NCBI RefSeq assembly: GCF_013315695.1
Contig: NZ_CP054353.1
DNA from: Escherichia coli
GTDB lineage: Bacteria > Pseudomonadota > Gammaproteobacteria > Enterobacterales > Enterobacteriaceae
Length of the DNA: 64,000 bases
Reading direction: 5' to 3' (one strand)
The notes under the pieces were generated by a model. The model made no database searches. It had not been told where the DNA came from and saw nothing but the letters and a program-made list of their open reading frames with translations. The position numbers and the translations under genes were made by a program. The number at the start of each line of letters is the position of its first letter. The first letter of the stretch is position 1. Shown piece by piece: positions 43,739 to 62,065 of the stretch.

Positions 43739-46021
43739 ATGTCCGAGCTTAATGAAAAGTTAGCCACAGCCTGGGAAGGTTTTACCAAAGGTGACTGGCA
43801 GAATGAAGTAAACGTCCGTGACTTCATTCAGAAAAACTACACTCCGTACGAGGGTGACGAGTCCTTCCTGGCTGGCGCTACTGAAGCGACCACCACCCTG
43901 TGGGACAAAGTAATGGAAGGCGTTAAACTGGAAAACCGCACTCACGCGCCAGTTGACTTTGACACCGCTGTTGCTTCCACCATCACCTCTCACGACGCTG
44001 GTTACATCAACAAGCAGCTTGAGAAAATCGTTGGTCTGCAGACTGAAGCTCCGCTGAAACGTGCTCTTATCCCGTTCGGTGGTATCAAAATGATCGAAGG
44101 TTCCTGCAAAGCGTACAACCGCGAACTGGACCCGATGATCAAAAAAATCTTCACTGAATACCGTAAAACTCACAACCAGGGCGTGTTCGACGTTTACACT
44201 CCGGACATCCTGCGTTGCCGTAAATCCGGTGTTCTGACCGGTCTGCCAGATGCTTATGGCCGTGGTCGTATCATCGGTGACTACCGTCGCGTTGCGCTGT
44301 ACGGTATCGACTACCTGATGAAAGACAAACTTGCACAGTTCACCTCTCTGCAGGCTGATCTGGAAAACGGCGTAAACCTGGAACAGACTATCCGTCTGCG
44401 CGAAGAAATCGCTGAACAGCACCGCGCTCTGGGTCAGATGAAAGAAATGGCTGCGAAATACGGCTACGACATCTCTGGTCCGGCTACCAACGCTCAGGAA
44501 GCTATCCAGTGGACTTACTTCGGCTACCTGGCTGCTGTTAAGTCTCAGAACGGTGCTGCAATGTCCTTCGGTCGTACCTCCACCTTCCTGGATGTGTACA
44601 TCGAACGTGACCTGAAAGCTGGCAAGATCACCGAACAAGAAGCGCAGGAAATGGTTGACCACCTGGTCATGAAACTGCGTATGGTTCGCTTCCTGCGTAC
44701 TCCGGAATACGATGAACTGTTCTCTGGCGACCCGATCTGGGCAACCGAATCTATCGGTGGTATGGGCCTCGACGGTCGTACCCTGGTTACCAAAAACAGC
44801 TTCCGTTTCCTGAACACCCTGTACACCATGGGTCCGTCTCCGGAACCGAACATGACCATTCTGTGGTCTGAAAAACTGCCGCTGAACTTCAAGAAATTCG
44901 CCGCTAAAGTGTCCATCGACACCTCTTCTCTGCAGTATGAGAACGATGACCTGATGCGTCCGGACTTCAACAACGATGACTACGCTATCGCTTGCTGCGT
45001 AAGCCCGATGATCGTTGGTAAACAAATGCAGTTCTTCGGTGCGCGTGCAAACCTGGCGAAAACCATGCTGTACGCAATCAACGGCGGCGTTGACGAAAAA
45101 CTGAAAATGCAGGTTGGTCCGAAGTCTGAGCCGATCAAAGGCGATCTCCTGAACTACGATGAAGTGATGGAGCGCATGGATCACTTCATGGACTGGCTGG
45201 CTAAACAGTACATCACTGCACTGAACATCATCCACTACATGCACGACAAGTACAGCTACGAAGCCTCTCTGATGGCGCTGCACGACCGTGACGTTATCCG
45301 CACCATGGCGTGTGGTATCGCTGGTCTGTCCGTTGCTGCTGACTCCCTGTCTGCAATCAAATATGCGAAAGTTAAACCGATTCGTGACGAAGACGGTCTG
45401 GCTATCGACTTCGAAATCGAAGGCGAATACCCGCAGTTTGGTAACAACGATCCGCGTGTAGATGACCTGGCTGTTGACCTGGTAGAACGTTTCATGAAGA
45501 AAATTCAGAAACTGCACACCTACCGTGACGCTATCCCGACTCAGTCTGTTCTGACCATCACTTCTAACGTTGTGTATGGTAAGAAAACTGGTAACACCCC
45601 AGACGGTCGTCGTGCTGGCGCGCCGTTCGGACCAGGTGCTAACCCGATGCACGGTCGTGACCAGAAAGGTGCAGTAGCCTCTCTGACTTCCGTTGCTAAA
45701 CTGCCGTTTGCTTACGCTAAAGATGGTATCTCCTACACCTTCTCTATCGTTCCGAACGCACTGGGTAAAGACGACGAAGTTCGTAAGACCAACCTGGCTG
45801 GTCTGATGGATGGTTACTTCCACCACGAAGCATCCATCGAAGGTGGTCAGCACCTGAACGTTAACGTGATGAACCGTGAAATGCTGCTCGACGCGATGGA
45901 AAACCCGGAAAAATATCCGCAGCTGACCATCCGTGTATCTGGCTATGCAGTACGTTTCAACTCGCTGACTAAAGAACAGCAGCAGGACGTTATTACTCGT
46001 ACCTTCACTCAATCTATGTAA
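43739..46021 (+). CDS. pflB: pyruvate formate-lyase (formate C-acetyltransferase)
   Basis: 760-aa ORF with the C-terminal glycyl-radical motif RVSGYAV and active-site cysteines (IACCVSPM). Confidence 0.98.
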
Positions 46022-46063
46022 TTAGATTTGACTGAAATCGTACAGTAAAAAGCGTACAATAAA

Positions 46064-46089
46064 GGCTCCACGAAAGTGGGGCCTTTTTT
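46064..46089 (+). terminator. rho-independent terminator of pflB
   Basis: Imperfect hairpin GGCTCCAC-GAAA-GTGGGGCC followed by TTTTTT. Confidence 0.6.
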
Positions 46090-46212
46090 AGCACGAGAGC
46101 CTTTTTTGTCAGCTATCTATACTTTAAGGTGACTGCCAAAACAGACTCGACGTAGCCTTCGAGCTGCGCACCAACACGGCCTCAGATGGGCCACATCTGG
46201 AGAAACACCGCA

Positions 46213-46953
46213 ATGTCAGTTATTGGTCGCATTCACTCCTTTGAATCCTGTGGAACCGTAGACGGCCCGGGTATTCGCTTTATCACCTTTTTCCAGGGCT
46301 GCCTGATGCGCTGCCTGTATTGTCATAACCGCGACACCTGGGATACGCATGGCGGTAAAGAAGTTACCGTTGAAGATTTGATGAAGGAAGTGGTGACCTA
46401 TCGCCACTTTATGAACGCTTCCGGCGGCGGCGTTACCGCATCCGGCGGTGAGGCAATCCTACAAGCTGAGTTTGTTCGTGACTGGTTCCGCGCCTGCAAA
46501 AAAGAAGGCATTCATACCTGTCTGGACACCAACGGTTTTGTTCGTCGTTACGATCCGGTGATTGATGAACTGCTGGAAGTAACCGACCTGGTAATGCTCG
46601 ATCTCAAACAGATGAACGACGAGATCCACCAAAATCTGGTTGGAGTTTCAAACCACCGCACGCTGGAGTTCGCCAAATATCTGGCGAACAAAAATGTGAA
46701 GGTGTGGATCCGCTACGTTGTTGTGCCAGGCTGGTCTGACGATGACGATTCAGCGCATCGCCTCGGTGAATTTACCCGTGATATGGGCAACGTTGAGAAA
46801 ATCGAGCTTCTCCCCTACCACGAACTGGGCAAACACAAATGGGTGGCGATGGGCGAAGAGTACAAGCTCGACGGTGTAAAACCACCGAAAAAAGAGACGA
46901 TGGAGCGAGTAAAAGGCATTCTTGAACAATATGGTCATAAAGTGATGTTTTAG
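46213..46953 (+). CDS. pflA: pyruvate formate-lyase activating enzyme (radical SAM)
   Basis: 246-aa ORF from ATG 46213 ([23 protein letters not shown]...) with the radical-SAM cluster motif [10 protein letters not shown]. Confidence 0.96.
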
Positions 46954-47019
46954 AACATCATTGCAGGTTGAATGTCGACCTGTAATTTTGGCTCCTTCCC
47001 CCTTCTTTTAGTTAGAATA

Positions 47020-47059
47020 AATAAATCAGCGTTGAGTGTATGCTCGACGCTGATTTATT
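47020..47059. terminator. 13-bp-stem hairpin between convergent pflA and bcsC-like gene
   Basis: AATAAATCAGCGT...ACGCTGATTTATT perfect inverted repeat with a 14-nt loop; the only strong structure in the 146-bp convergent gap. Confidence 0.5.
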
Positions 47060-47099
47060 GAGCTTAATTTTCGTACTGTAACTTTCCGATGCTACGTTA

Positions 47100-50000
47100 C
47101 TACCCGTCGGCGTAAGGTATCAGCGGCTGTGGCGGTAAATCCATATCGCCCTGCCATCCGGCGGCGGAATACCGTACATAGAGCTGGAAGTGACTTGGCG
47201 CATAATCCTTCGCTTTCTGGATATCAATCGCCGTACCAACAAACCAGTTGGACGTGACGCGACGTTCAAGTAATGCCCGTGCCGTGTAACCAAAACCCTG
47301 ACTGCTGCTACCACTGTTGGATTGTTGTGCTGCTTCTTCCTGCCAGTCGCTCGGGATCAGGTTCATCAGCGGATAACGCGGCATGGTTTTGGTCCGTGAG
47401 TGCGACCATGAACCTGAAGCCCCCAGCTCCCACGACCAGTTTTCCGTCCGCTCGCGCCACATCACCGGCACCGCAAACGACAGGTATTCCTGCGGGCTGT
47501 AGTAACCGCCCTGACCCAGTGAGTACTCACTCAGGTCTTTGTCGTAATGCCAGATCATGTTGTTCAGGCCAATGGTAACGCGGCGGTTATTCTCGTTGAT
47601 AATTTTATAGTAATAGCCCGTCATCCAGCGCACGCGCCAGTTATCTTCGACATTTTTACCGGTTAACTGATCACCGCTAAGCGATGCCCAGACGCCGTTT
47701 GCTTCACCTTTATCGTAACTCAGACTTAGCCCCACGCCGTCGGCACGCACGCCGCCCCATTTTTTCCCGGTGTTGCCCGGAGAATCTTTCTGCCCGCCGA
47801 AGGCCAGCATTGAGCTGGAGACAGGCCGACGATGTGCGTCAACGGTATAGCCGAGTGGGCCGATACTGTCGCTGTAACTGACAGCGCCGACCACATCCAC
47901 CACGTTGAATCCCATCGGTGTGGTGCCAATATCCCAGCTCCAGGTGTCGTTGCGCCAGCCAACCGCCACGCTTGTGCCGGAGTCTGACTGACTGCGGTTG
48001 CCGCTACACTCCTGCAGCGTACAGGTTCCCCAGTTATCATCCCATTTGCCATCGGCATTAGTGGAGAAACTGCCGACGTTCATATTGACGAAATCACTGC
48101 GAAAGAACATCCGACCGTCAGAATACGGCGCATCCACCTGCAACATGGTGGTATGTGCTTTCAGGTCAGAATAGCCGCCAGTGCCGTTTGATCCCCAGTA
48201 GTCGTGCTCCAGGGTGACATTGAGATCCTGCTGACGATAAAGATCTGCCGCATCGCTGCGCACGCCACGTTTCAGCCAGTCATCCTGCTCATCATTACGG
48301 GTAAGGCGGGTAAAGGTGTCGTTATCCTGCGGACGTGTCGTCGTCACGCCGGAAGCGATCATCGCATCTTTGTAGGTTTCCAGCGCCTGTTGCGGTTCAC
48401 CCGCCTGCGCCTCAAATTTTGCGCCATCGCGCAGTACCATCGCGCTTTCCATCGACGGCGGCTGAGATTTTGCCTGCAGGATCAGCCTGTTAAATGTCTG
48501 CTGTGCCGCTGCGGTATCGCCAAGCTGTGCCTGCACCAACGCCACGCGCCGCTGAGTGTTCAGCGAGGCGTTATCGGTGGCGGGAAGTTTCGCCAGTTGA
48601 CTGCGCGCCGCGGCTTTGTCGCCTGCGGCAATATCCACTTCCGTCAGGCCAAGAATGGCATCGGCGTTATTCGACTCCCGCGCCAGCACATTCTGATACG
48701 CCGTGCGGGCGGCGGTGTAATCGCGTCGCTGTTGTGCCCAGTCAGCCAGCGTAAGATCAATGCGCGTGGAAGGCGGTTGCTGGCGTAGCATCGCCTCCGC
48801 ATCCTGTTCTTTGCCACTGTCACGCAGGCGATTAGCCGTTTCCAGAATCTGATCGCTTTGCAGGCGATTCACCAGTTCCTGAATGTTGCCGTTCCACCGG
48901 GCGCGCGGCAGATTGTTAATATGCGCCAGCGCCGCCCGCTCCTGATCGTGACCGGAGAGATACAGTCCGTAAGCGTAAACCTGGTCCGGGTCGTTCGGCT
49001 TCTGTTGCGCCAGGTTACGCATTAACGTATCAGCCTGGGTACGTTGTCCGGCCTGCCAGAGATCCTGCGAAAGCCGGTAAGTTACCCACACACTGCCGGG
49101 GTCCAGCGCCAGTCGTTGCCGCTGAAGTGCTGCCGCCTGCGCCCATTTACCCTGATTTTCCAGCGCCTCCGCCTGCTGCGATAAGCGATCGTTTTGCAGA
49201 CTGCGTTCGATATCATCAATACTGCGCCGCTGGCTGGCAGAAAGTGACGCAATAAACGCTTCAGCTTTTTCCGGCGATTGCTGCCGATAAATGTTCGCCA
49301 GTCCACGCACGGCGTTAGTGTTGCCGCTGTCCATACGCAGGGTCTGCTGATAATAACGTTCGGCGGCGGGGTAATCTTTTCGCGCCATTGCCACATCACC
49401 CAGCCCCAGCACCGCATAGCTGTCGGTGTTATCGACATTGCGTGCCTGCAGGAACAGGCGTTCCGCCTGATCAGGATTGTTCGCTTTCAGTGCGGCATCG
49501 CCCTGTTGGATCGCCAGCCAATAACGGTTCACTTTCAGCAAACTGTTCCATTTGTCGTTGTTGCTGCTGTGCGGGCCCAGCGCGAGGGCTTTTTCCAGAT
49601 TTGCCACCGCATTCGCGCGATCGCCTTTCTGTGAATAAGCCTGGCCCAGCGCCCCCAATATTGCACCAGAGTTTGGGTTATCAATATTAAGTTTTTTCAA
49701 CTGACTAATTGCCTCGTTGCGACGAGATGCAATTTGCGCCACTGCACTCCAGTATTCCAACGCCATGCCGACATCTGACGGTACTCCGTTAAATAGCTTG
49801 TCATAACTGACAATAGCCTCCTCGTATCGCCCGGAGATAGCTTGTAAACGCGCCATTTGCAATGCCTGGCGCCCCTCAAGCGAAGAAAGTCGCATGACCG
49901 TACGCGATGCTTTATATATTTTTGAATCTGGGGCGATCAGAGAAAGTCTGGCAAGTTGTTTGTGTGCTCCGTCAATATCCCCCTTGCGAAGCAGATAGCG

Positions 50001-50207
50001 AAACCGAGCCGCAACGACATCAGGATTATTGGGCTCCACCAATTCAAGGCGATAAAGCGACTGCTCCACCAGTTCTTCACGGTGAGAGTCTTCTCCCAAT
50101 CGAATCTGTGCCATCAGCAGTTGATAAGCAGTTGGCGTGGCTTTTGCCATCGACATTACCGCCAAACCAAGAGATATGGTGAGTAAATTTAGGGTGAATT
50201 TGTGCAT
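47100..50207 (-). CDS. BcsC-like outer-membrane exopolysaccharide export protein (N-terminal TPR region + C-terminal beta-barrel)
   Basis: About 1035-aa ORF (ATG at 50207; track start 50219 is TTG) with signal peptide MHKFTLNLLTISLGLAVMSMAKA, multiple TPR-like repeats, and a C-terminal region rich in alternating aromatic/Gly beta-strands typical of BcsC barrels. Last gene of the co-oriented cluster. Confidence 0.8.
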   Translation of the reverse strand: MHKFTLNLLTISLGLAVMSMAKATPTAYQLLMAQIRLGEDSHREELVEQSLYRLELVEPNNPDVVAARFRYLLRKGDIDGAHKQLARLSLIAPDSKIYKASRTVMRLSSLEGRQALQMARLQAISGRYEEAIVSYDKLFNGVPSDVGMALEYWSAVAQIASRRNEAISQLKKLNIDNPNSGAILGALGQAYSQKGDRANAVANLEKALALGPHSSNNDKWNSLLKVNRYWLAIQQGDAALKANNPDQAERLFLQARNVDNTDSYAVLGLGDVAMARKDYPAAERYYQQTLRMDSGNTNAVRGLANIYRQQSPEKAEAFIASLSASQRRSIDDIERSLQNDRLSQQAEALENQGKWAQAAALQRQRLALDPGSVWVTYRLSQDLWQAGQRTQADTLMRNLAQQKPNDPDQVYAYGLYLSGHDQERAALAHINNLPRARWNGNIQELVNRLQSDQILETANRLRDSGKEQDAEAMLRQQPPSTRIDLTLADWAQQRRDYTAARTAYQNVLARESNNADAILGLTEVDIAAGDKAAARSQLAKLPATDNASLNTQRRVALVQAQLGDTAAAQQTFNRLILQAKSQPPSMESAMVLRDGAKFEAQAGEPQQALETYKDAMIASGVTTTRPQDNDTFTRLTRNDEQDDWLKRGVRSDAADLYRQQDLNVTLEHDYWGSNGTGGYSDLKAHTTMLQVDAPYSDGRMFFRSDFVNMNVGSFSTNADGKWDDNWGTCTLQECSGNRSQSDSGTSVAVGWRNDTWSWDIGTTPMGFNVVDVVGAVSYSDSIGPLGYTVDAHRRPVSSSMLAFGGQKDSPGNTGKKWGGVRADGVGLSLSYDKGEANGVWASLSGDQLTGKNVEDNWRVRWMTGYYYKIINENNRRVTIGLNNMIWHYDKDLSEYSLGQGGYYSPQEYLSFAVPVMWRERTENWSWELGASGSWSHSRTKTMPRYPLMNLIPSDWQEEAAQQSNSGSSSQGFGYTARALLERRVTSNWFVGTAIDIQKAKDYAPSHFQLYVRYSAAGWQGDMDLPPQPLIPYADG

Positions 50208-51968
50208 ACCTGGACTCAATCAGGTGTTAACTCACTTTTTATTAAAAAATGAATAAGCGCAGTTCCCTGCCCTGCCTGTTTAAGGCCAGAGCAGAGAGCT
50301 ACAAAGATGAATTACTGTTGATGAGGATTCAGACGACGATGGCTAATGATGCGTAGCAGACGCCAGACGACCCACGCCAGAAGCACCACACTCAGCATTG
50401 CCATTCCTGCCAGCAAAACAGGATGTTTCGCTAACATATATTGCGCGCGCTCAATCCAGGGAAGATGCCCCACATAATAGGTATCTCCAACCCGTAAACT
50501 ATCGACACCTGATTCACGAATAACCGCAACTGAGCCAAATATATTGCCACGTTTTGCACTATTAATTAGCGCATTATTAAGTAACTCGTCACCACGTGCC
50601 CCCTCGGTCATTAATGCAATTACGCTACGTTGGGGATGATATGGAGACTGGAAACCAACCACCGCGGCCATTGGCGATGGAGAGATCATGCTTGTTTGTG
50701 TTTCAGTTTTTTGGTTGTTTTCATCTGTCATAATTTGTGCGTTATCAGAGTGCCGCATTGGCGTTTTTACCCAACTAGCGGTTGCATCAATGAGCAGATT
50801 AATTTGCTGCTGACCTGCAAATTCTTGCGGAATTGCCCCTATCAGCAGGATGTCTGCATCCTTATTCTGGATGGAGCTTATATCATCAGTAACTGTCAGA
50901 TTAATTGCCGGAAATCCGGTTTGAGCACCAATCAATCCAAGGGTATTTAGCAATATTTCAACCTGCGTTGTACCAGGATGTTCAGGCATAACGATGACTG
51001 TTTCAGATAAATCGGCCATACGGCTAAAAGGAAAGCCTGAACTAGCAAAGGCGCGTAAATCTGGCATGGCGATAAAGTGATGATACTTTGAAAAATCGAT
51101 AGTAGAATCATCAGCAATAACTGCATGGTTATTCAGAGGCCGGGAAATAATACAACTCCCGTCATCAGTACTCGGTATCGTATTAACGTACTCAAAATTG
51201 AATCGTAATTGATTAAGTGCCCCCAATGTCAGCGCCGGAATGGTAATTTTATTATTGCTATCTGACAATTCTTGCAATAACGGTAAATGTAATAGCAGTC
51301 GATCAGTAGTCGAGCGCGGGCTTGGGCGAAAAGATTCAATGTACTGATTATTAAGATTAACATCAATACGAGAACCGCCTACCATTGGCGTGGTATAGCG
51401 ATAGTTAATCTTCATATCAACCCCACTATTACGTAACAGAAAGAGATCAGGCGGCAAATTGAATGAAACATTAATTGCTGCGATCTGCAGGGCACTTGCC
51501 TGTAACTGTCCTTCATAGTTTTTAAGCTCTGCGAAAGTTACAGGACGATCAGTGCGAACCCAGTTTGGCGCATCATAAGGTTTGCGTGGCAGCAGTGGTT
51601 TCACGTCATTTACAACCACACTATCGCCGCGAAACAGTATATTTCCCTGAGCGAGACCTTTTGCTGCCTGTAATAAATCTTTGTCATCGCGGCCCCAAAT
51701 TACCAACAATTTGACGAAAGGATTTTGTGGATGGTTAATCATCTTAATAACAGGTGCATTCACCAACGGATGATCACGCAAAAAGTCTGGCCGTCTATTG
51801 TTAGTGGCAAAGACTATAGCATTGCTTTCCGGTAACTGATTATAAAAAACTGGAAATTGATGACCACGCCACCCCGATTGCGAACCAAACCACGAAGCGA
51901 CAATTGCAGATGCTTGCTGCAAACCAGCCTCCGGTGGGCCAGCAAAAACCATCGGCAATGTATTAGTA

Positions 51969-51977
51969 CGGTTATCT
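51969..51977. repeat. 9-bp IS1 target-site duplication, left copy (CGGTTATCT)
   Basis: Identical 9-mer at 52746-52754 flanks the other end of IS1. Confidence 0.9.
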
Positions 51978-52032
51978 GGTGATGCTGCCAACTTACTGAT
52001 TTAGTGTATGATGGTGTTTTTGAGGTGCTCCA

Positions 52033-52308
52033 GTGGCTTCTGTTTCTATCAGCTGTCCCTCCTGTTCAGCTACTGACGGGGTGGTGCGTAACGGCAAAAG
52101 CACCGCCGGACATCAGCGCTATCTCTGCTCTCACTGCCGTAAAACATGGCAACTGCAGTTCACTTACACCGCTTCTCAACCCGGTACGCACCAGAAAATC
52201 ATTGATATGGCCATGAATGGCGTTGGATGCCGGGCAACAGCCCGCATTATGGGCGTTGGCCTCAACACGATTTTACGTCACTTAAAAAACTCAGGCCGCA
52301 GTCGGTAA
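52033..52308 (+). CDS. insA: IS1 InsA (transposition inhibitor / N-terminal part of InsAB' transposase)
   Basis: 91-aa [45 protein letters not shown]... matching IS1 InsA. Confidence 0.95.
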
Positions 52309-52730
52309 CCTCGCGCATACAGCCGGGCAGTGACGTCATCGTCTGCGCGGAAATGGACGAACAGTGGGGCTATGTCGGGGCTAAATCGCGCCAGCGCTGG
52401 CTGTTTTACGCGTATGACAGGCTCCGGAAGACGGTTGTTGCGCACGTATTCGGTGAACGCACTATGGCGACGCTGGGGCGTCTTATGAGCCTGCTGTCAC
52501 CCTTTGACGTGGTGATATGGATGACGGATGGCTGGCCGCTGTATGAATCCCGCCTGAAGGGAAAGCTGCACGTAATCAGCAAGCGATATACGCAGCGAAT
52601 TGAGCGGCATAACCTGAATCTGAGGCAGCACCTGGCACGGCTGGGACGGAAGTCGCTGTCGTTCTCAAAATCGGTGGAGCTGCATGACAAAGTCATCGGG
52701 CATTATCTGAACATAAAACACTATCAATAA
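52227..52730 (+). CDS. insB: IS1 InsB frame (expressed as InsAB' via -1 frameshift)
   Basis: 167-aa ORF in the -1 frame relative to insA, matching IS1 InsB. Confidence 0.9.
52282..52290 (+). promoter_or_regulatory. IS1 programmed -1 ribosomal frameshift site (TTAAAAAAC)
   Basis: The A6C slippery motif lies in the insA/insB overlap, where the IS1 frameshift site is known to be. Confidence 0.7.
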
Positions 52731-52745
52731 GTTGGAGTCATTACC

Positions 52746-52754
52746 CGGTTATCT
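52746..52754. repeat. 9-bp IS1 target-site duplication, right copy (CGGTTATCT)
   Basis: Exact repeat of 51969-51977. Confidence 0.9.
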
Positions 52755-53455
52755 CGCGGATCAAAGAATGGCACAGGAAAATATGAAAGATCATTTTGCA
52801 GATTGAGTTTCTGGACGACCAGACCAAGTTCACTGTTACGTCCAATATCAAGCCACAAGTTATTGCTGGTTGAGATTTCACAGCTATTCTGATAATGGCC
52901 AATTAATTCAAAACGCAAACGATTAAAATCCGAGAAATACAATGGGTTAAGCGTTATTTCCGCCAACGTTTTTTTTCCCAGTTGTTCTTTGGTAATCGGT
53001 AATACTCCCATCAACTCATCATTAAGATAAACTTTAAGCTGCGACTGAACGGGGATCAATGACGGTGACGGAGTATATTCAAGCTTTAGTTTTGCATCTG
53101 AAACTATCTCATCACTGCGCATACCAAATTCAATATACCCCAGTGGGTTGACACCATTCAAAACGATGTTACCAGGCGCTGGTGATATTTGTGTAAATGG
53201 AAGTTTAAAATGATAAGAGGAATCTTTCGCATAAACAGAGACGTTAGACTTCTCTATAGCGGGTAATACTATCCCGGAGGGAGACTTATGGATTATGGTA
53301 TCTAAAGCTGATGCAGCATTTGCCTGGTATAACCATAAAAACCCTAAGCAAATTATTGCAGTAATAAATTTTAAATATTTTCTTTCCATTTTAAAAATTT
53401 CAAGAGACATAATCAACACAAATAATATATTTAGTTGGTTAAATATAATCTAAAA

Positions 53456-55570
53456 CTAATTCTCACGACTATTTTTTAGTGTCCGCAGAATATAAAAAAT
53501 CATATTGTAATACCCTTTAAGAGAGATGATACATACGTCAAAAAAGCTCTTTAGTATATTATCTTGCTTAATTTTATCATTCCACTCTTGCCATAATGAA
53601 TCACGTGAAAATGTTACTCTGACATAATTAATATTCTGTTCATAAGTCATTGGCAAAATCTTCAGACCAATTTTATTTTTGTAAGCATGAACAACTTTTA
53701 CAGGAATATCACATTCCCCTTTATTATCACTCAGATAAAGAGACAAATGCTGAGTTTTTTCGATTTCTTTTACATCGGAGATGTGATCAACAATAACCCC
53801 CAGGCCACCTTCGGAGAAATCAATAACAGAACAGGGATAGCACCGTCCATCTGCTAGTTTTATCACACCTTTAAAAGAAACATCTATCCGAGGAGAAAAG
53901 CGGACCTGCTTTTGTTCAATAGAGACTGCCAGGGTTGCGCCAATAATAATTGTATTATAAATCAACCAAATCAAACAAAATAAATTTAATATAACAAGAT
54001 GACCTTGCAATCTATAAATATTAATAACACCTATTATTAGTCCAATTAAATTTAAAATAGCAAAAATAAGATAAGGATATGAGATTCGCCAGTCAACAAA
54101 TTTATTTTTTATTAACCCGCCCTTGGCAGTAACGTTAAATCGCCCTTTAGCTGGCGCAAGTAAGGCAACAAGCGTTGGTAGTGTAATATACCAGGCCAGA
54201 ACCATTTCATAAATTTCATTCCAAAATGAATGTCTGTATTCACCCTGAACTCTTGAGTTAGTAAAAATAATCACAAATAGATAAGGTAGAACATAAGACA
54301 TAATATCTGCAACCGACGCATCTATCAAATTAACTGAAAAGAAAATAGGACATAGTGGCGCGAATAAAAAAATCAGCCGTGGAACCCCTGATAAAAAATG
54401 CATCATGCTACTGAGATAGCAAAGACGCTGTGATAACGTCAGCCCTTTGCCCAATAATGGATTATCAATACGTAAGATTTGGATCATGCCCCTGGCCCAC
54501 CGTATTCGTTGTCCGATATGAGCAGACAATGTTTCGGTAGCAAGTCCAGCGGCCAGAGGATAGCGAAGATATGCGGAGCTGTACCCTGCACGATGCAAGC
54601 GTAGCGATGTATGCGCATCTTCCGTTACCGTTTCAACTGCAATGCCTCCAACCTCATCTAATGCAGACCTACGGATAACCGCGCATGAACCACAAAAAAA
54701 TGAAGCATTCCATGTATCGGTGCCATTCTGGATTAAACCATAAAAAAGATGTCCTTCATTTGGTTTCTGCCGAAATTGCCCCAAGTTTCGCTCAAAAGGA
54801 TCGGGAGAGAAAAAATGATGTGGTGTTTGCAGCATCGATAGTTTTTTATCGGCAATAAACCAGCCCATCGTTTTTTTTAAAAAAGAAACGGAAGGAATAT
54901 GATCACAATCGAAAATAGCAACAAATTCGCCGTTAGCTATTTTAAGCGCATTGTTTATATTTCCAGCTTTCGCATGTTCATGCGTTTCTCTTGCAACATA
55001 GCAAATACCTGACTCATCAGCAAATTTCCTGAATTCGTCTCTGGCACCATCATCAAGAAGCCAGACATGTAATTTATCTTTTGGCCAGTCTAAAGCCAGC
55101 GCTCCATAAACTGTATTCTTCACGACAGTAAAGGGTTCATTATATGTAGGTATGAATATATCGACATCAGGCCATTCTTCTTTATTATCTGGTAAAGGTA
55201 TGCTTTCCCTGTTCAATGGGAAACAGACCTGAAAATAACCAAGTAATAAAACAAACCATGCATACGTTTCAGCAGCTAACAGCGTCAATGAAAAGAAGCT
55301 GTCAGGAAACTCATCAAGAATAACTGAAGAAGAGTAACGCCACCATAGATACCTTGTGGATATAAGTATACCAATACCCATTAAGATCAGGGTAATCATC
55401 CTTCCCCTGAGCAAATTGAGGAGAAAAACAGAGATACAAATGATAATCGAGAATAGTGTTTGTTGATAAAAACCGAGCGGCTGTTCAACAATTGACAAAA
55501 AAACAAAACATAGCAATATAGCAACAAAAAGAAAAATTTTGTTGTATATTTCTTTATTTTTTAAATTCAT
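53456..55570 (-). CDS. BcsA-like processive family-2 glycosyltransferase with C-terminal PilZ (c-di-GMP-binding) domain
   Basis: 704-aa ORF with eight or more predicted TM helices, GT2 motifs (LLDDGARDEF, FDCDH, TVTEDAHT, QRIRWARG, FFCGSCAV) and PilZ motifs (RFSPR = RxxxR; DFSEGG = DxSxxG). About 35% GC. Confidence 0.88.
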   Translation of the reverse strand: MNLKNKEIYNKIFLFVAILLCFVFLSIVEQPLGFYQQTLFSIIICISVFLLNLLRGRMITLILMGIGILISTRYLWWRYSSSVILDEFPDSFFSLTLLAAETYAWFVLLLGYFQVCFPLNRESIPLPDNKEEWPDVDIFIPTYNEPFTVVKNTVYGALALDWPKDKLHVWLLDDGARDEFRKFADESGICYVARETHEHAKAGNINNALKIANGEFVAIFDCDHIPSVSFLKKTMGWFIADKKLSMLQTPHHFFSPDPFERNLGQFRQKPNEGHLFYGLIQNGTDTWNASFFCGSCAVIRRSALDEVGGIAVETVTEDAHTSLRLHRAGYSSAYLRYPLAAGLATETLSAHIGQRIRWARGMIQILRIDNPLLGKGLTLSQRLCYLSSMMHFLSGVPRLIFLFAPLCPIFFSVNLIDASVADIMSYVLPYLFVIIFTNSRVQGEYRHSFWNEIYEMVLAWYITLPTLVALLAPAKGRFNVTAKGGLIKNKFVDWRISYPYLIFAILNLIGLIIGVINIYRLQGHLVILNLFCLIWLIYNTIIIGATLAVSIEQKQVRFSPRIDVSFKGVIKLADGRCYPCSVIDFSEGGLGVIVDHISDVKEIEKTQHLSLYLSDNKGECDIPVKVVHAYKNKIGLKILPMTYEQNINYVRVTFSRDSLWQEWNDKIKQDNILKSFFDVCIISLKGYYNMIFYILRTLKNSREN

Positions 55571-55643
55571 GGTACGTAACTATTCATTAATACTATGATT
55601 TGACTTTAAAAAAACGAATGAATGATGTCATAAAAATAAAATT

Positions 55644-56984
55644 TTAACACCAGGTTACCTGTGCTCTTCCATTTTGCTTACTTTTGTATAATCGTTCATC
55701 TGCCAGTAATTTCAACCGTTCAATGTTATTCATGCACTCGTCAGTATTGGCAACACCAATACTGCAACTACAATTCAATCCACCTATTGAGAAATGGACT
55801 ATTCTGTGCAAAATTCTTGATAATTGATTTATATCTTTATCATGATAAATAATAGCGAACTCATCGCCACCAAATCGATAAACTTCACCTTTGCTGAGGG
55901 GTAATTCATCCTTAATAAGATTAACAAGTCTTATTAGTACTTCATCACCAAATAAATGACCAAACTTGTCATTAATGGTTTTAAACTTATCTACATCAAA
56001 CAGGCATAAATATCCAAAATCCTTACTCAGCATCCTGATATTTTTATCAAAAACACGACACCCAGAAGCTCGCGTCAATGCATCGTAAGTCCCGGAATCA
56101 TATATTTCTCTAATTGCATCAATCTCTTCAACGTTAAAGAATAGATTTTTTCCATGCAAATTATAATGATTATTCGATAATATAGATTCTTTTTCTGACT
56201 TACCCTTATTTATGATTTTTTGCATTAATTTAATGTAATGAAAATATATTAACCCCGCAGAAATCGCCGATGTGAAAACAAAAAACAAGCACATATAAAT
56301 ATACTTATCTTTTTTATAGGCAACAATAAACATTACTTCCGGGATATAAGAATAAGCAAGAGTGATCGCTGATTTCTCAAATACAGCATCATTAATCAAA
56401 AAATCATCACCCGCGATTTTCTTTTCATTATCATTGATATCATAAAATGAGACATATATATTTTCCCGTTCACCTGACTGATTTCTTATCAAAGCCAAAT
56501 AACGTTCAGGATCTACCACTGATATCAAACTTGTTCGTTTCGAAATAGGATGAGCATAATAAATATAATATTTATTATTTAAACTAATAATCCCTCTTTC
56601 AAAGATGTTACTTATACGGATAGAAGAAACTATGCCGTCACAAAAGTTATCCCCTTCCGTTGTAACTTTGGCGCATTTACCATCGCTAATGATATAGGGA
56701 CCTAGATCATAAATATATTCTGGTTTTTGAAAGTCAGCAAAACTATTGCGTATCCTTTTTAACAACTCTTCCGGAGAAATATCTAACCCATAAAATACAT
56801 TATTAAATACTAAGCGCCGATACTCAGACACATTAGCTATAGCAAGCCCACTATCTATGATCGATACCTTTACCGAATTGACTCGATCTTTAACGTAAAT
56901 AGTATACAGATAACATGTCATTACAGAGACACATAAAAAATACAAAAAACAGATCCCTGCTGCCTTTTTTTTATACTTAAACAT
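55644..56984 (-). CDS. membrane-anchored diguanylate cyclase (two TM helices flanking a periplasmic domain + GGDEF domain); DgcI/YliF-like by architecture
   Basis: 446-aa ORF with GGDEF-domain motifs DALT, FDVDKFKTINDKFGH, RFGGDEFAII and ADERLYKSKQNGR; no RxxD I-site five residues upstream of GGDEF. About 30% GC. Confidence 0.85.
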   Translation of the reverse strand: MFKYKKKAAGICFLYFLCVSVMTCYLYTIYVKDRVNSVKVSIIDSGLAIANVSEYRRLVFNNVFYGLDISPEELLKRIRNSFADFQKPEYIYDLGPYIISDGKCAKVTTEGDNFCDGIVSSIRISNIFERGIISLNNKYYIYYAHPISKRTSLISVVDPERYLALIRNQSGERENIYVSFYDINDNEKKIAGDDFLINDAVFEKSAITLAYSYIPEVMFIVAYKKDKYIYMCLFFVFTSAISAGLIYFHYIKLMQKIINKGKSEKESILSNNHYNLHGKNLFFNVEEIDAIREIYDSGTYDALTRASGCRVFDKNIRMLSKDFGYLCLFDVDKFKTINDKFGHLFGDEVLIRLVNLIKDELPLSKGEVYRFGGDEFAIIYHDKDINQLSRILHRIVHFSIGGLNCSCSIGVANTDECMNNIERLKLLADERLYKSKQNGRAQVTWC

Positions 56985-56988
56985 TGTG

Positions 56989-59337
56989 TTATTTTCTTTT
57001 TTTCGGTTTACTGTCTATATGCCACTCTGAAAACGGTAATGGTTTCTGGTATAAATATCCCTGAACATGGGAGAAGCCTAATTTTTGTAATTCTCTGGCC
57101 TGTCTTTCTGTTTCAACACCTTCAGCGATCACTGGCATATTTTCTTCTCGTGCAAGACTAGATATAAAACACACAACCCTGTTAGTTTCATCGAAAATAC
57201 CAGAAGTAAATTCTGAATCAATTTTGATGCTATCAGGTCTAACTTTGTATAATTTTTTCAAGTCAGCTAACCCACTGCCAAAATCATCAAGGGAAATTTT
57301 AATGCCATTTCTTCTTAAAAATTTTATATTATTATAAAAACTATCATTTATATCTTTCATTGCTGACTCGGTGATCTCCAGACAGATTTGTTCCGTATTT
57401 ACGCCAAATTTATTAATTAAATTCAAAACGCGGGTATGGAAATCAAATTCATTTAACTGCCAAGGTGAAACATTGATATGCAGAAGAAATTCTTTCGTAA
57501 TTTCATACTCACGACTAAATGAACCAAATTCACCAATAGCCGTTTCAAGAACAAAATCACCCAGTTCTTTAATTAAGCCAATTTCTTCAGCAACAGGCAC
57601 GAAAACTGATGGTGGTATTGCACCATTTTCAACGGACAACCAGCGGCATAACGCTTCGGCGCCAACAACATTATTACTATCCATATCAACAATCGGTTGA
57701 TATACTAAATAAAACTCACTACTCACAATTGCTTTTTTTATATTTCCAGCAACCCAAACCTTTTGATCAAGTTCATGAGCCTTAATATCATCATAAAATA
57801 TAAATTCAGATTCTTTATTTTCTCGCATAGCTGTTAATGCCAGTTTCAGTTTACCTTCATAAATCGACAAACTTTCCCCTGAAAAAGTTTCACAAATAGC
57901 AACCTTATGAACATAAATATTTCTTATGCAAAAAATATGCTCAGGAAAGTTTAAAACAGATAATCGTTCTATGAACTCTTCACAATGAGTGTGACACAGC
58001 AACAAATATGTTTCAGTAGAAATTTTTATAATATCACAATATTTAGAATACTTTGCTGATATCTTTGATTTTATATCATTAATGATCTCATAAAATTTCT
58101 GACTGCCATGTATAGCCTCTACAAACTCTAATCCATAGATACAAAGCATACCAACTGCTGAATAGGTTTTATTATTAGTTTCAATGACAGATTTGTTGAT
58201 ATAGAAACAACTTCCTTGTTCATAGGAAACAAGATTAAGTAACCGTTCCATCCGCTCTTTGTATTTGTCACTAATGTTATTAATGATTTTTTTGAGCTCA
58301 ATAATCTCACTACTGTCATTTTGCACGATTTCGATTTTATCATTTCGGTATACTGAGCTCGCTAATTTTTTCAGATGCTCAATTAGTTTACCAGAGTCGT
58401 TTCTAACCTTTTTTGTTATCTTTTCAAAAAGGTACCATAATAAACAGAAACAAACCAAACCACATACAAACATCAGTGTAAAATATTTATTTATGTTTGT
58501 GTCTTCTGCTTTTTGATAATGAAAATAATGAAATTTGACATCAGGAAGCCTGGGGAGTGAAATAATATCGTCCGTATAATTACCGTTATTATTACTTATG
58601 TTATAACGTCCAGATGCATCTCTAACAATAAGATGTAACATTGATTGTTCATTACCTACCATAATCCTTTTATTCTGTTCCATAAATAAAATATCTGCAT
58701 TTCCTCCTAATTTGTCCAGGAAATTGCTAAAATATCTTTCATCAAGATCTAAATGAATTAACTTCAGAGCAAATGAATCTTTTTCTGCTTCGGCTGGTCG
58801 TAATGAAAACGAAAAACATTTTTTCCCGGCAATGCCATAGCAGTTATACCATGGTGACCATTTTGAATAAGTCCCTGTTGGTAATTTATTCCAGGGACGG
58901 GATTCAGGATCAAAGTAGTTATCGTTAATTTCACCATCAGGGCTAGTAAAAGCATGACCTGGCTCTGATTGCCCCAAAAATTTAACATCACCATTATCAG
59001 TTCGAATAAAGCTAAGATACTTTCCATTATTTAGCATTATTCCGACTAAATTAACAGAATCTATCTTTTTCATCCGATGAAGAACTGCGCGTTTTATTTC
59101 ATTTTCATCGTGTAACAGATAAATGGCATCTTTTAAAGCATCCGCCTCTTTTTCAACTTTAGAAAAAAAGTTATTCAAATTATTATTGATAAGTATAAGA
59201 TTAATGCGTGAAGAGTTTTCTGCTATTTTTTTATAAAAATCAATGGCTGTAATAAATGATAAAATAATATAGACAGTGACAGCGAATATAAGCGCAGTGT
59301 TAAATCTTGAGTTTAATTTTTCTGTGATGCTATACAT
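56989..59337 (-). CDS. membrane-anchored c-di-GMP phosphodiesterase (periplasmic sensor domain + cytoplasmic linker + EAL domain); PdeI/YliE-like by architecture
   Basis: 782-aa ORF; EAL-domain catalytic motifs are intact (EALCRW, NVSPWQ, EITES, DDFGSGL, KIDSEF, EGVETE, GYLYQKP). Its stop is 4 bp from the dgc start. Confidence 0.85.
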   Translation of the reverse strand: MYSITEKLNSRFNTALIFAVTVYIILSFITAIDFYKKIAENSSRINLILINNNLNNFFSKVEKEADALKDAIYLLHDENEIKRAVLHRMKKIDSVNLVGIMLNNGKYLSFIRTDNGDVKFLGQSEPGHAFTSPDGEINDNYFDPESRPWNKLPTGTYSKWSPWYNCYGIAGKKCFSFSLRPAEAEKDSFALKLIHLDLDERYFSNFLDKLGGNADILFMEQNKRIMVGNEQSMLHLIVRDASGRYNISNNNGNYTDDIISLPRLPDVKFHYFHYQKAEDTNINKYFTLMFVCGLVCFCLLWYLFEKITKKVRNDSGKLIEHLKKLASSVYRNDKIEIVQNDSSEIIELKKIINNISDKYKERMERLLNLVSYEQGSCFYINKSVIETNNKTYSAVGMLCIYGLEFVEAIHGSQKFYEIINDIKSKISAKYSKYCDIIKISTETYLLLCHTHCEEFIERLSVLNFPEHIFCIRNIYVHKVAICETFSGESLSIYEGKLKLALTAMRENKESEFIFYDDIKAHELDQKVWVAGNIKKAIVSSEFYLVYQPIVDMDSNNVVGAEALCRWLSVENGAIPPSVFVPVAEEIGLIKELGDFVLETAIGEFGSFSREYEITKEFLLHINVSPWQLNEFDFHTRVLNLINKFGVNTEQICLEITESAMKDINDSFYNNIKFLRRNGIKISLDDFGSGLADLKKLYKVRPDSIKIDSEFTSGIFDETNRVVCFISSLAREENMPVIAEGVETERQARELQKLGFSHVQGYLYQKPLPFSEWHIDSKPKKRK

Positions 59338-60436
59338 ACTGGTGTTCTGACTAAAATGTTATCAATAATTTCGATATTACATTATATAAAGTTCGGTATA
59401 TGAAATGGTATTAATACTCCTCTTTATGATTTTCTGAATTAAATGATCTCCATTCTGTAAATATATCATAATGAGAAGATTGATTTTCTCTTAATTTACC
59501 AAAGTTATTATCATGCTTATTACTTTAACCAGAATGACATTATCATATATAGCGTTTATACTTTTGCATCTTCCACCCACGCTACCGCCTTTCGTTAATT
59601 TATCAACGAAATAATTTAGATATGAAAAAATCAATATATGACGCCTAAGCTATCACATTATGCATAGTTGCGACATTCACCTCTTTAATTATCCCAAAGA
59701 GGTATTAATGTGAATTCTCTATCATCCATTTTGCTGATTTATCTTTTTTCAGTCATGAGCAATCCGACTCTCTTAGCCAAAATAAATTAATAACCTTAAA
59801 ATGAGGTTTAATCAGAAAGTAGTAGCCACAGCTTGACTATTAAGACTATAAATTAGCCATAACGATGGACAGATAAATATGTTAATGAATACATGTTCAA
59901 TAAAACAATAAGGCACAACGCCAGGCCACCATTTTATTTTAAAAATAAAAGGCTGTGAACTATGCCAGGTATAATCTGATTCTATCGAGAGAGAATTTTT
60001 GTAAGTTACAAATACTGCAAAAGACACATTACACAAAATTTTTAACCACACAAACACCTTGTGTTCTGTATAACAGAACAATAGCTGTGGTCATTTTCAG
60101 CAAGTTTAACTAAAATTATCAAGAATTTTTTTTGATGTATATCAAAAACAATAGTCTTCGCGCATCCGTTACTGCTTAACATTTACCCACAAAGTTCATA
60201 TTTTCACCACACATAATCGTTCACTTCAGAACTTAAAATAATAACTTGCAAAATAACCAATAATTAAAACTATCACTGCATCTAAAAATAAAGATTAAGA
60301 TAACTAAAATTCGTATTATCACGGCATCGTTTATCGCCACCCGTCTCTTAAGAAAAATTTAACTTTGCTATTATCAGTCCTCTCCGAATTTCTCTTCTAT
60401 TTACTGCGATAACCCCGGCGAACCGGGGCATGATGA

Positions 60437-61856
60437 CTATTTCTTATTCGCTTTACGCGCAAGTAACGGGAATATCAGCCCCAGTCCAACCAGGACAAAT
60501 GGCGTCGCAATATTCAGCGCCAACTGAAAAGTCCACTCTGCGGTGAAGGCTTCCATTTTCGGGAAAATCCCTGTCAGGCAGGCAAAAGCGGTAAAGGTAA
60601 AACACCAGATCCCGACAGTCATCGCCAGCGGCCTGTTACGAATAAAGACATACTCTGGTTTATATTTCTGCGCCAGGCGAACGACTGCAATAAATGCAAC
60701 AAATACCCATAAATAACGCAGCGGCATCACTACCGAATTAAGGTTCAACAGCCATTTATAGAGATTGTTCATATCACCAATGCCGAGAGTCGGCAGCATA
60801 ATCAGAATCGCCACCAGTACCAGGGTCAGAAAATAGCCATTAACGGGCGTACCAGAAGCGTTGGTACGACATAAACTGGCTGGAATATATTTGCTATCAG
60901 CATCGCCTAATAGTACTTTAAGCGGCGCATCAATCGAGAATACCAGCGCAGCTACTTGTCCCAGGGTATTCGCAATGGCGTAAATCACCATTAAAGTATT
61001 ACCCATGTTGTAATACTCGCCCAGCTTCTGAAAGGCGTAATACTGACCGTTGGTCATTAAGTCATCCGGGATATTACGCGAATCAAACATCATCCCCATC
61101 GCCAGCGAGCCCAGAATGGCACAAACCGCAACCATCACCGCCAGGCATAACATCCCTTTTGGAAATTCTTTTCCTGGGTTGCGCGTTTGATTAACGTAAG
61201 GAGAAATCTTCTCTGCTCCGCCAACCGCGAAAACCAGCATTGAAATAGTGGTAATGTAGGTAAAGTCGATATGAGGAATGAACGTTTCCCAGGTAATGTT
61301 TGTGGTCGCAATATGCACTTCAGTAATTGCAGGCGCGGTTACCGCCATCGCCACATACAGGAGCGACATAACAAACATCGCAATCCCTGCCACAGAACCG
61401 ACGATTTTCAGCGATTTCATACCGCGTGAAGCAACCCACATAAAGAAGATAAACAGCACCAGCGTTAACCCCTGTAACGCTACGACTGAATATTCTTTGA
61501 TTAACGAACCGTCGCCTTTCATCGCCCAACCGAGCGCAATCAGTATTGCCTGGGGTTTTTGTGCCAGATAGGGAATATGCACTACCCAGTAGGTCCACGC
61601 GGCGAGGTAAGCCAGTCCGGGTCCCATCGTGTGTTTAATCCAGGTACTGACCCCGCCCTTCCCATCTTTGAAGGTCGAGCCTAACTGACCAACAATTAGC
61701 GCATAAGGTGTGAAATAGAGCGCAAAGATAAACACCCATGAAAAACCCCTGGTTGGCGTAGTTATTAACAACGTTGCCAAAACCCCAGACAGTGATAAAA
61801 GACATCAGCGCAATGTTGTACCATCGCAGCTGTTTTTCCTGAACATTCCCAGCCAT
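60437..61856 (-). pseudogene. ycaM: APC-family amino acid/polyamine transporter gene with a frameshift near the 5' end
   Basis: The N-terminal 37 codons (MAGNVQEKQLRWYNIALMSFITVWGFGNVVNNYANQG, from ATG 61856) are in one frame and the remaining 447-codon ORF (from 61780) in another; the frames switch at an A5/T5 homopolymer at 61741-61745. Confidence 0.7.
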
Positions 61857-62065
61857 AGACAAATCCTTCGCCAAAATTAAAGGGGCATCTGTAAAACGAG
61901 GGATTATGCGCGGCAAATAAGAAGTGCGGAAATAGCGAAATGCAAAATTATAACCTGCTGCACATTTTATTTTGAAACGAATAAAATTTGGAATAAAGCA
62001 AGTCAGATAGAAGAAACAAAAAAGCAGAGTGTGAAACAGTAAGTTCACACTCTGCGTTAATTCAT

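Follow-up and report, generated by a model that had tools for sequence, protein, structure and literature searches.

Introduction

How does a string of cellulose-synthase-like genes, complete with its own enzymes for making and degrading cyclic dimeric guanosine monophosphate (c-di-GMP), come to lie between pflA and ycaM in an Escherichia coli chromosome, and what kind of system is it? The string occurs in a 64,000-nucleotide stretch of E. coli DNA (RefSeq assembly GCF_013315695.1, contig NZ_CP054353.1; hereafter "the window," meaning the whole stretch), which is 100% identical to chromosomal DNA of MSB1_4I, an E. coli isolate of human rectal origin. It comprises five co-oriented minus-strand genes, in order a phosphodiesterase gene (pde), a diguanylate cyclase gene (dgc), and bcsA-, bcsB-, and bcsC-like genes that we call bcsA3, bcsB3, and bcsC3. 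We regard it as highly probable that this is the chromosomal type 3 accessory cellulose cluster of Escherichia—a c-di-GMP-gated, old locus at pflA/ycaM that has mostly been lost.

Cellulose is a main component of the E. coli biofilm matrix and counteracts acute virulence. With a self-regulated second synthase that bypasses the phosphoethanolamine (pEtN) machinery, some strains could respond to other signals and build a matrix of another kind. Paired control of a PilZ-gated cellulose synthase is familiar from the pdeA–dgc "cdg" operons of Komagataeibacter xylinus and from DgcC/PdeK in E. coli. However, the Komagataeibacter pairs are cytoplasmic PAS proteins encoded in separate operons, and DgcC/PdeK, which control BcsA in E. 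coli K-12, are encoded apart from the synthase, whereas the pair in the window consists of periplasm-sensing membrane proteins in the synthase's own gene string. With sensor cyclase, sensor phosphodiesterase, and effector side by side, the locus lends itself as a small, naturally occurring model for local c-di-GMP signaling, and it also shows a paralogous exporter gene staying tied to the resident copy. For the window itself, the message is modest: a known, rare accessory locus, predicted to be inactivated here, in a strain whose core cellulose locus is damaged too.

Assignment to the Type 3 Accessory Cellulose Clusters

The open reading frames (ORFs) confirm the layout that an original prediction, made from the sequence alone, had given for this locus, i.e., the gene order, the minus strand, pflA and ycaM as flanks, and gaps of 4, 73, 36, and 92 bp in gene order (45 and 104 bp for the last two with NCBI's ATG starts). 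Its domain assignments were borne out by Pfam and NCBIfam (CHASE9–EAL, GAPES2–GGDEF, glycosyltransferase family 2 [GT2]–PilZ, BcsB, and BcsC), its claim that the catalytic and c-di-GMP-binding motifs are intact by alignment to solved structures, and its placement of the string outside the canonical bcs locus likewise stood.

BcsA3 passes the NCBIfam cut-offs for TIGR03030 (845.7 bits; cut-off 699.1) and, narrowly, for NF008558 (1012.8 bits; cut-off 992). Aligned to the E. coli BcsA structure 7LBY (residues 160 to 829), it shows the GT2 motifs LDDG, DCDH, VTEDAHTS, QRIRWARG, and FFCGS and the gating loop FNVTAKGG, and in its PilZ domain (Pfam, 1.8e-11 at 555–651) RFSPR and DFSEGG align to RRSHR and DFSDGG of the E. 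coli core synthase, BcsA1. BcsA1 is longer at both ends, by an N-terminal extension of ~150 aa and a C-terminal one of ~36 aa that BcsA3 lacks; identity to BcsA1 is 52.9% over 688 aa (BcsA1 158–836), or 41.7% when counted as 364/872, with 63–78% in the catalytic core. BcsB3 is 64.3% identical to BcsB1 and has a transmembrane segment (TM) at 732–750, and the intact BcsB3 of strain E7-1N7 (766 aa) matches NF008325 over positions 3–765 of 766 (1162 bits; cut-off 922). BcsC3 combines tetratricopeptide repeats (TPRs) with a complete BCSC_C barrel and scores above the cut-off of the NCBIfam BcsC equivalog.

The original prediction recognized no described E. coli system of such composition, but one exists. 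RefSeq annotates bcsA, bcsB, and bcsC together with GGDEF and EAL proteins at this locus, and a preprint of 2025 describes accessory bcsABC clusters of E. coli with the synthases BcsA2, BcsA3, and BcsA4 (Hosseinpourlamardi, Labiba, Li, Dadvar & Romling, bioRxiv 10.1101/2025.05.09.653004). In that account, BcsA2 and BcsA3 are short synthases of bcsABC-only, Escherichia-restricted clusters, these two kinds of cluster lie on p0111/IncF plasmids or, with BcsA3, on the chromosome, and homologues of YliE/YliF (PdeI/DgcI) are directly adjacent; c-di-GMP control is hypothesized, unmodified cellulose is predicted, and the sole experimental test concerned a type-4 plasmid. It is the only paper on these clusters that our literature search found, and the system is already known from this one preprint, which for this type is bioinformatic only. 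Of the possibility raised alongside the prediction, that the arrangement might be a common and already annotated locus, the second half held and the first did not: it is present in 9 of 5,426 complete E. coli genomes (0.17%), always between pflA and ycaM.

Like type 3 of the preprint, the window cluster has a short BcsA from which ~150 aa at the N-terminus and ~30 aa at the C-terminus are missing relative to BcsA1, is bcsABC-only and chromosomal, belongs to Escherichia (E. marmotae is listed), and adjoins a YliE-like EAL and a YliF-like GGDEF protein; there is probably no difference in kind, the bcsB of the window being split by an insertion sequence (IS), IS1. The preprint gives ~41% identity to BcsA1 for BcsA3, close to the value obtained here, and ~43% for BcsA2, where we measured 384/872 = 44% for the plasmid type. 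The BcsA of the window is 88% identical to that of E. marmotae and 73% to the plasmid type, and the three BcsA3 references of the preprint (HDP8224287.1, WP_309491259.1, and E. marmotae WP_000576412.1) were not among the cluster members read. The locus fits chromosomal type 3 by similarity and percentage identity rather than by accession match. The preprint text makes no mention of pflA, ycaM, or recombination, and what is added here is the pflA/ycaM site, the replacement of ycaN–ycaK, the chimeric bcsC, the apparent vertical history, the decay in E. coli, and the purifying selection.

The class II pEtN-cellulose locus (bcsRQABZC–bcsEFG) shares the GT2 and PilZ chemistry of BcsA, the c-di-GMP gating, and the BcsB and BcsC partners, and the last 870 residues of its BcsC are 93–97% identical to accessory BcsC. 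In contrast to it, the window cluster lacks bcsR, bcsQ, bcsZ, bcsE, bcsF, and bcsG as well as the N-terminal extension of BcsA, has diverged in BcsA (53%) and BcsB (64%), has a BcsC shorter by 122 TPR residues, carries its own cyclase and phosphodiesterase, and occupies another chromosomal site. Specifically, the interval from pflA to ycaM contains the five genes and IS1 alone, and the core bcsE/F/G are elsewhere in the genome; just 92–104 bp separate bcsB3 from bcsC3 at the bcsZ position, and dgc stands upstream of bcsA3 at the bcsQ position. Type 2 (BcsA2; E. coli plasmids and the E. fergusonii chromosome) is nearer, with the same pde–dgc–bcsA–bcsB order, domain architectures, and low GC, but its proteins are only 73% (BcsA), 68% (phosphodiesterase), 57% (cyclase), and 60% (BcsB) identical to those of the window, and it sits on plasmids or at another chromosomal site.

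The E. fergusonii module (GCA_020168615.1, L020 10001–18080) consists of pde, dgc, bcsA (701 aa), and bcsB (715 aa), and its BcsA is 95.6% identical to plasmid BcsA2. Its site is unrelated to pflA/ycaM: on one side lies a TetR-family gene, with wrbA- and yccJ-like genes among the upstream neighbors, and on the other side yedF/yedE-like genes are followed by an alpha-amylase gene and fliT. In the type-2 plasmids (p13QT4, L007 13320–16449; p573-4, L012), a group II intron (ltrA) follows bcsB2 and precedes a core-like bcsC; in p573-4 an IS1 cuts the CHASE9 gene short, and copies of IS1 ring the cluster.

The Cyclase and Phosphodiesterase Pair

Both signaling enzymes have the layout of membrane-bound periplasmic sensors. 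The phosphodiesterase runs from TM 14–32 through a periplasmic CHASE9 region (7.9e-38) and TM 286–304 to a middle domain and an EAL domain at 533–766 (2.1e-64), whose catalytic residues all align to those of active DosP (EAL, N, EITES, DDFG, KID, EGVE, and QGY). The cyclase has TM 8–26, a periplasmic GAPES2 domain (1.2e-39), TM 228–251, and a GGDEF domain at 300–441 (2e-21); aligned to solved cyclases, its GGDEF motif is intact and the Mg- and substrate-binding residues are present, while the RxxD I-site, looked for in the same alignment, is absent.

The pdeI–dgcI (yliE–yliF) pair of K-12 has the same lengths (782 and 442–446 aa), TM positions, CHASE9–...–EAL and GAPES2–GGDEF architectures, and order, with a few-base gap, but, unlike the pair in the window, no bcs neighbors. 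Orthology of the two pairs was considered and rejected: identities of 38.6% to PdeI (across the full 782 aa) and 40.7% to DgcI, at a different locus, make them full-length paralogues.

This kinship invites the view that the two enzymes feed the general c-di-GMP pool and are PdeI/DgcI paralogues that merely happen to adjoin a synthase. Their K-12 counterparts have no bcs neighbors, and pde and dgc are intact where bcsB is destroyed (in the window and in strain GF43). We consider this view rather unlikely. The order pde–dgc–bcsA–bcsB, with gaps of 4 to ~70–85 bp, is kept in type 3 of three species and in type 2 (the E. fergusonii chromosome and plasmid remnants) despite 57–74% protein divergence between the types, and purifying selection acts on all of the genes together (see below). 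The conserved order lends support to the originally proposed dedication of the cyclase and phosphodiesterase to the PilZ-gated synthase they are linked with.

In intact alleles, the five genes would be transcribed as one unit from the AT-rich leader upstream of pde, and the two membrane enzymes would sense periplasmic signals via CHASE9 and GAPES2 and set the level of c-di-GMP. Binding of c-di-GMP to the PilZ domain of BcsA3 would open the gating loop, BcsA3 and BcsB3 would convert uridine diphosphate glucose into a beta-1,4-glucan and pass it across the inner membrane, and BcsC3 (a TPR scaffold with a predicted 16-strand barrel) would export it.

A Chimeric Exporter Gene

Two parts of unlike history make up bcsC3. 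Its first ~537 nt are only 64–75% identical to core bcsC (~60% at the aa level), whereas identity over its last 2.56 kb amounts to 88% for the window allele, 92% for that of strain E69, and 96% for that of strain N3. The protein encoded by this 3' part is 92.8% identical to residues 287–1156 of E. coli BcsC1, and its GC content of 57.2% equals that of core bcsC. The junction, at which BcsC3 is short of 122 TPR residues relative to BcsC1, is identical in all alleles examined. An identity gradient along bcsB3, sought as the sign of a second chimeric junction, was not clear.

Most of bcsC3 would accordingly derive from core bcsC, with which it possibly still exchanges sequence. In N3, several 150-nt segments of the accessory bcsC are 99–100% identical to the strain's own core bcsC while differing from the core genes of other strains. 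The accessory gene of N3 also shares 23 of 42 variants private to its own core copy, vs. 3 of 40 private variants of another strain, and for the accessory gene of the window the overlap with the private variants of the strain's own core copy is 15 of 40, although many of these "private" variants are common to all accessory alleles, making retained ancestral states or accessory-to-core conversion possible. These patterns suggest ongoing conversion between accessory and core bcsC, in either direction.

Type-2 clusters show a similar picture. Those on plasmids carry a core-like bcsC (97–98.5% identity): p13QT4 has a whole gene 98.5% identical to core together with the last ~120 nt of bcsZ, and p573-4 retains only the terminal 1,670 nt. 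In the chromosomal E. fergusonii module, bcsC is missing altogether. Because type-2 exporters are absent or core-derived and bcsC3 is chimeric, the stable unit seems to be pde–dgc–bcsA–bcsB, for which the resident system would provide, or share, the outer-membrane exporter. A chimeric, core-derived bcsC qualifies the statement that BcsC clusters concordantly with BcsA (bioRxiv 10.1101/2025.05.09.653004).

Distribution and History of the Locus

A scan of genome contigs with exact-peptide patterns returned a single locus, that of E69; such patterns miss alleles diverged by 10–15%, so that the result does not bear on absence elsewhere. The loci of E. marmotae, E. ruysiae, and E. fergusonii were found via protein look-ups. 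The five-gene cluster occupies the same site in E. marmotae, where it is common, and in E. ruysiae. At this site K-12 has ycaN–ycaK (1.68 kb) instead, homology to K-12 ending within the stop codons of pflA and ycaM, and the segment borders are identical in all nine E. coli carriers, E. marmotae, and E. ruysiae. The E. coli alleles form two classes with ~85% DNA identity, one comprising the window, E7-1N7, and four others and the second N3, GF43, and 06-00048.

Between the allele classes, all five genes have ratios of nonsynonymous to synonymous divergence (dN/dS) of 0.07–0.14 at a dS of 0.55–0.77 and are under strong purifying selection. The flanking core genes ycaD, ycaC, and dmsC, compared between E. 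coli and either of the species E. ruysiae and E. marmotae, give a dS of 0.60–0.80. With allele and flank dS equal, the window allele is about as distant from the alleles of these cryptic clades as E. coli is from those species, which suggests an old Escherichia locus that was vertically inherited and lost by most E. coli, not a recent import.

Vertical descent would not be the whole history, for the cluster appears to have moved now and then between lineages by homologous recombination in its flanks. The N3-class allele is nearest to that of E69 (93.8% over 17 kb), and because the last 400 bp of N3 pflA are 98.5% identical to E69 and only 88% to K-12, introgression of this class through flanking homologous recombination is indicated. 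The last 200–460 bp of pflA and ycaM are divergent in the carriers (in pflA, the last 200–400 bp are 88–93% identical to K-12 vs. 99% further upstream; positions 46700–46953 of the window), and these divergent ends would be recombination scars. By its flank dS, strain E69 is E. ruysiae-like and not E. marmotae.

A fuller version of this history is only a tentative possibility. In it, the whole genus Escherichia would have inherited a second cellulose system from its ancestor, one whose periplasm-sensing cyclase and phosphodiesterase form a private c-di-GMP circuit for a synthase of unmodified cellulose, whose exporter gene stays interchangeable with that of the resident system through repeated conversion with core bcsC, and which E. 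coli is now losing; of all this, the preprint text covers the predicted product alone. E. marmotae and E. ruysiae, in which the ancestral cluster would be common, are mainly environmental.

On the contrary, the framing of the original prediction and of the preprint's title would have the segment be an island recently imported from an unrelated low-GC donor. The GC content drops from ~50% in the flanks to 32% in pde and dgc, and bcsA3 has 37% where core bcsA has 55%; the locus is rare in E. coli, and the kindred type-2 clusters are plasmid-borne and surrounded by IS1, all of which favor such an import. Yet the short BcsA accounts for just three of 5.8 billion protein clusters, each of them from Escherichia, the next hits being ordinary enterobacterial BcsA at 52–56% identity, and full-length relatives of the phosphodiesterase occur in Escherichia alone; a donor outside Escherichia, sought in these 5.8 billion clusters with BcsA3 and the phosphodiesterase, was not found. 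Furthermore, E. marmotae and E. ruysiae share the site and gene order, the allele dS equals the species-level dS of flanking core genes, and the borders, at which K-12 homology stops at two stop codons, are without integrase, tRNA, or direct repeats. A recent import is therefore unlikely. The low GC of pde, dgc, and bcsA3 does suggest a foreign origin, but an old one if so: taken together, these points place any such origin before the Escherichia radiation and leave flanking homologous recombination as the means of movement within the genus.

The Polymer Product

The cluster has no bcsG, bcsE, or bcsF, and BcsA3 is without the N-terminal extension of BcsA1; because of this, the product is probably unmodified cellulose. 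Another glucan (e.g., mixed-linkage or curdlan-like) or a differently modified one might be argued from the 53% identity to BcsA1 over the aligned part, the barely passed equivalog cut-off, and the lack of bcsZ, bcsG, bcsQ, and bcsR, but it is very improbable. The catalytic core keeps every cellulose-synthase motif at 63–78% identity to BcsA1, and its closest relatives are without exception BcsA proteins of enterobacteria. Its partners qualify as true equivalogs of BcsB and BcsC, and no modifying enzyme is encoded in the cluster.

State of the Cluster in the Window and in Other Carriers

The damage to bcsB3 hinted at in the original prediction proved to be a complete 768-bp IS1, oriented opposite to the operon and flanked by a 9-bp target duplication, CGGTTATCT, at 51969–51977 and 52746–52754. 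A script check confirmed the duplication and the terminal inverted repeats (GGTGATGCTGCCAACTTACTGAT / ...GGTAATGACTCCAACTTATTGAT), and insA/insB are present. When IS1 and one copy of the duplication were taken out in silico, an open bcsB3 frame was restored that differs from the intact E7-1N7 gene at 5 of 766 residues; four of six near-identical loci do not carry this IS1.

BcsB is required for catalysis (bioRxiv 10.1101/2025.05.09.653004), and because IS1 splits bcsB3 the synthase of the window should be inactive. The insertion may reduce bcsC3 expression too, while pde and dgc, which lie upstream of it and are spared, could still feed the cellular c-di-GMP pool. The core cellulose locus of MSB1_4I (NZ_LR898874.1 216298–230621) is also IS1-damaged: an IS1 separates bcsE, which has lost its 5' end and with it the N-terminus of the protein, from the 66 nt that are left of bcsR, and the divergent promoter region is lost. 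With bcsB3 and the core locus both broken, MSB1_4I is probably cellulose-negative. The core bcs locus of N3 is complete.

Among the other E. coli carriers, bcsB3 is hit by IS1 in OZ547117 and by an IS3-family element in GF43, and pde is split in AF14 (separate CHASE9 and EAL ORFs) and, per annotation, in OZ546911; a shortened, 392-aa BcsA variant is found on 119 contigs. Even so, a cluster that survives only as a relic and works in none of its carriers is scarcely credible, for against these disruptions (two independent IS insertions in bcsB3 and pde split in two genomes) and the shortened BcsA stand the low dN/dS of all five genes at substantial dS, the catalytic motifs all kept, and the intact reading frames of E. 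marmotae, E. ruysiae, and four E. coli genomes. Strains E7-1N7, MS 21-1, N3, and 06-00048 carry intact alleles.

Several points nonetheless weigh against our assignment of a c-di-GMP-gated type 3 cellulose system. In the synthase, BcsA3 stands barely above the NF008558 cut-off, and its PilZ region is just 32–37% identical to that of BcsA1; in the exporter, the 122 TPR residues are missing. A gene is broken in five of the nine E. coli carriers, which argues that the cluster is dispensable or counter-selected, and the low GC of pde, dgc, and bcsA3 (32–37%) is a sign of foreign origin at some stage. Co-transcription is inferred from the short gaps and the lack of convincing internal terminators, the type was assigned by similarity, and our literature search found no functional test of type 2 or type 3 clusters.

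Features of the Locus and Neighboring Sequence

Table 1. Coordinates of the accessory cellulose cluster and its flanks, as positions of the window.
Feature	Position	Strand	Basis or remark
pflA	46186–46953	+	flank; convergent with bcsC3
Replacement segment, pflA stop to ycaM stop	46954–60436	.	13,483 bp; 12,706 bp without IS1 and duplication
Hairpin, bidirectional, intrinsic-terminator-like	47020–47059	.	between pflA and bcsC3
bcsC3, whole	47100–50219 (NCBI start 50207)	-	ORF; BCSC_C barrel and TPRs
bcsC3 3' part, ~855 codons, remaining TPRs and BCSC_C beta-barrel	47100–49660	-	core-bcsC-like
bcsC3 5' part, ~180 codons, diverged, cluster-specific	49671–50207	-	64–72% nt identity to core bcsC; 47.9% GC
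bcsB3 3' fragment, including C-terminal membrane anchor	50312–51977 (ORF to 51991)	-	ORF
IS1 (IS1A family), 768 bp	51978–52745	+	sequence, script check, annotation
bcsB3 5' fragment, ~codons 1–219 from ATG 53410	52746–53419 (ORF from 52724)	-	ORF; annotated partial BcsB pseudogene
bcsA3, 704 aa, short BcsA with C-terminal PilZ	53456–55570	-	NCBIfam, Pfam, 7LBY alignment
dgc, 446 aa, DgcI(YliF)-like membrane diguanylate cyclase	55644–56984	-	Pfam, alignment to solved cyclases
pde, 782 aa, PdeI(YliE)-like membrane phosphodiesterase	56989–59337	-	Pfam, alignment to DosP
Non-coding leader upstream of pde, presumed promoter region	59338–60436	-	1.1 kb, 31% GC
ycaM	60437 onwards (to 61856)	-	flank

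The leader begins with the ycaM terminator hairpin, is without a conserved ORF, and is the least conserved stretch between alleles (66–77%). An Rfam scan of positions 46000–62000 at E <= 0.1 gave zero matches and thus no support for a riboswitch or small RNA in the leader. In such AT-rich DNA, consensus scans were uninformative for sigma-70 promoters (55 promoter-like hits vs. 39 +/- 8 expected) and for terminators (14 terminator-like hits vs. 12 +/- 4 expected). The sole terminator-like hit upheld by folding is the hairpin after bcsC3, with a stem of 13 bp + 3 bp, A-rich and U-rich runs on its flanks, and an RNA fold of -20.1 kcal/mol (z = -5.6; equal stability in 0 of 200 shuffles).

The flanking gene ycaM is annotated as frameshifted in both MSB1_4I and AF14. 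Its longest ORF in the window (60437–61780) starts ~29 codons short of the 476-aa K-12 protein, and its last ~460 bp are 93% identical to K-12 vs. 97.6% further in. An IS4 element lies between aroA and ycaL (~35779–37125), and the remainder of the window, from ssuA to dmsA, is ordinary core genome.

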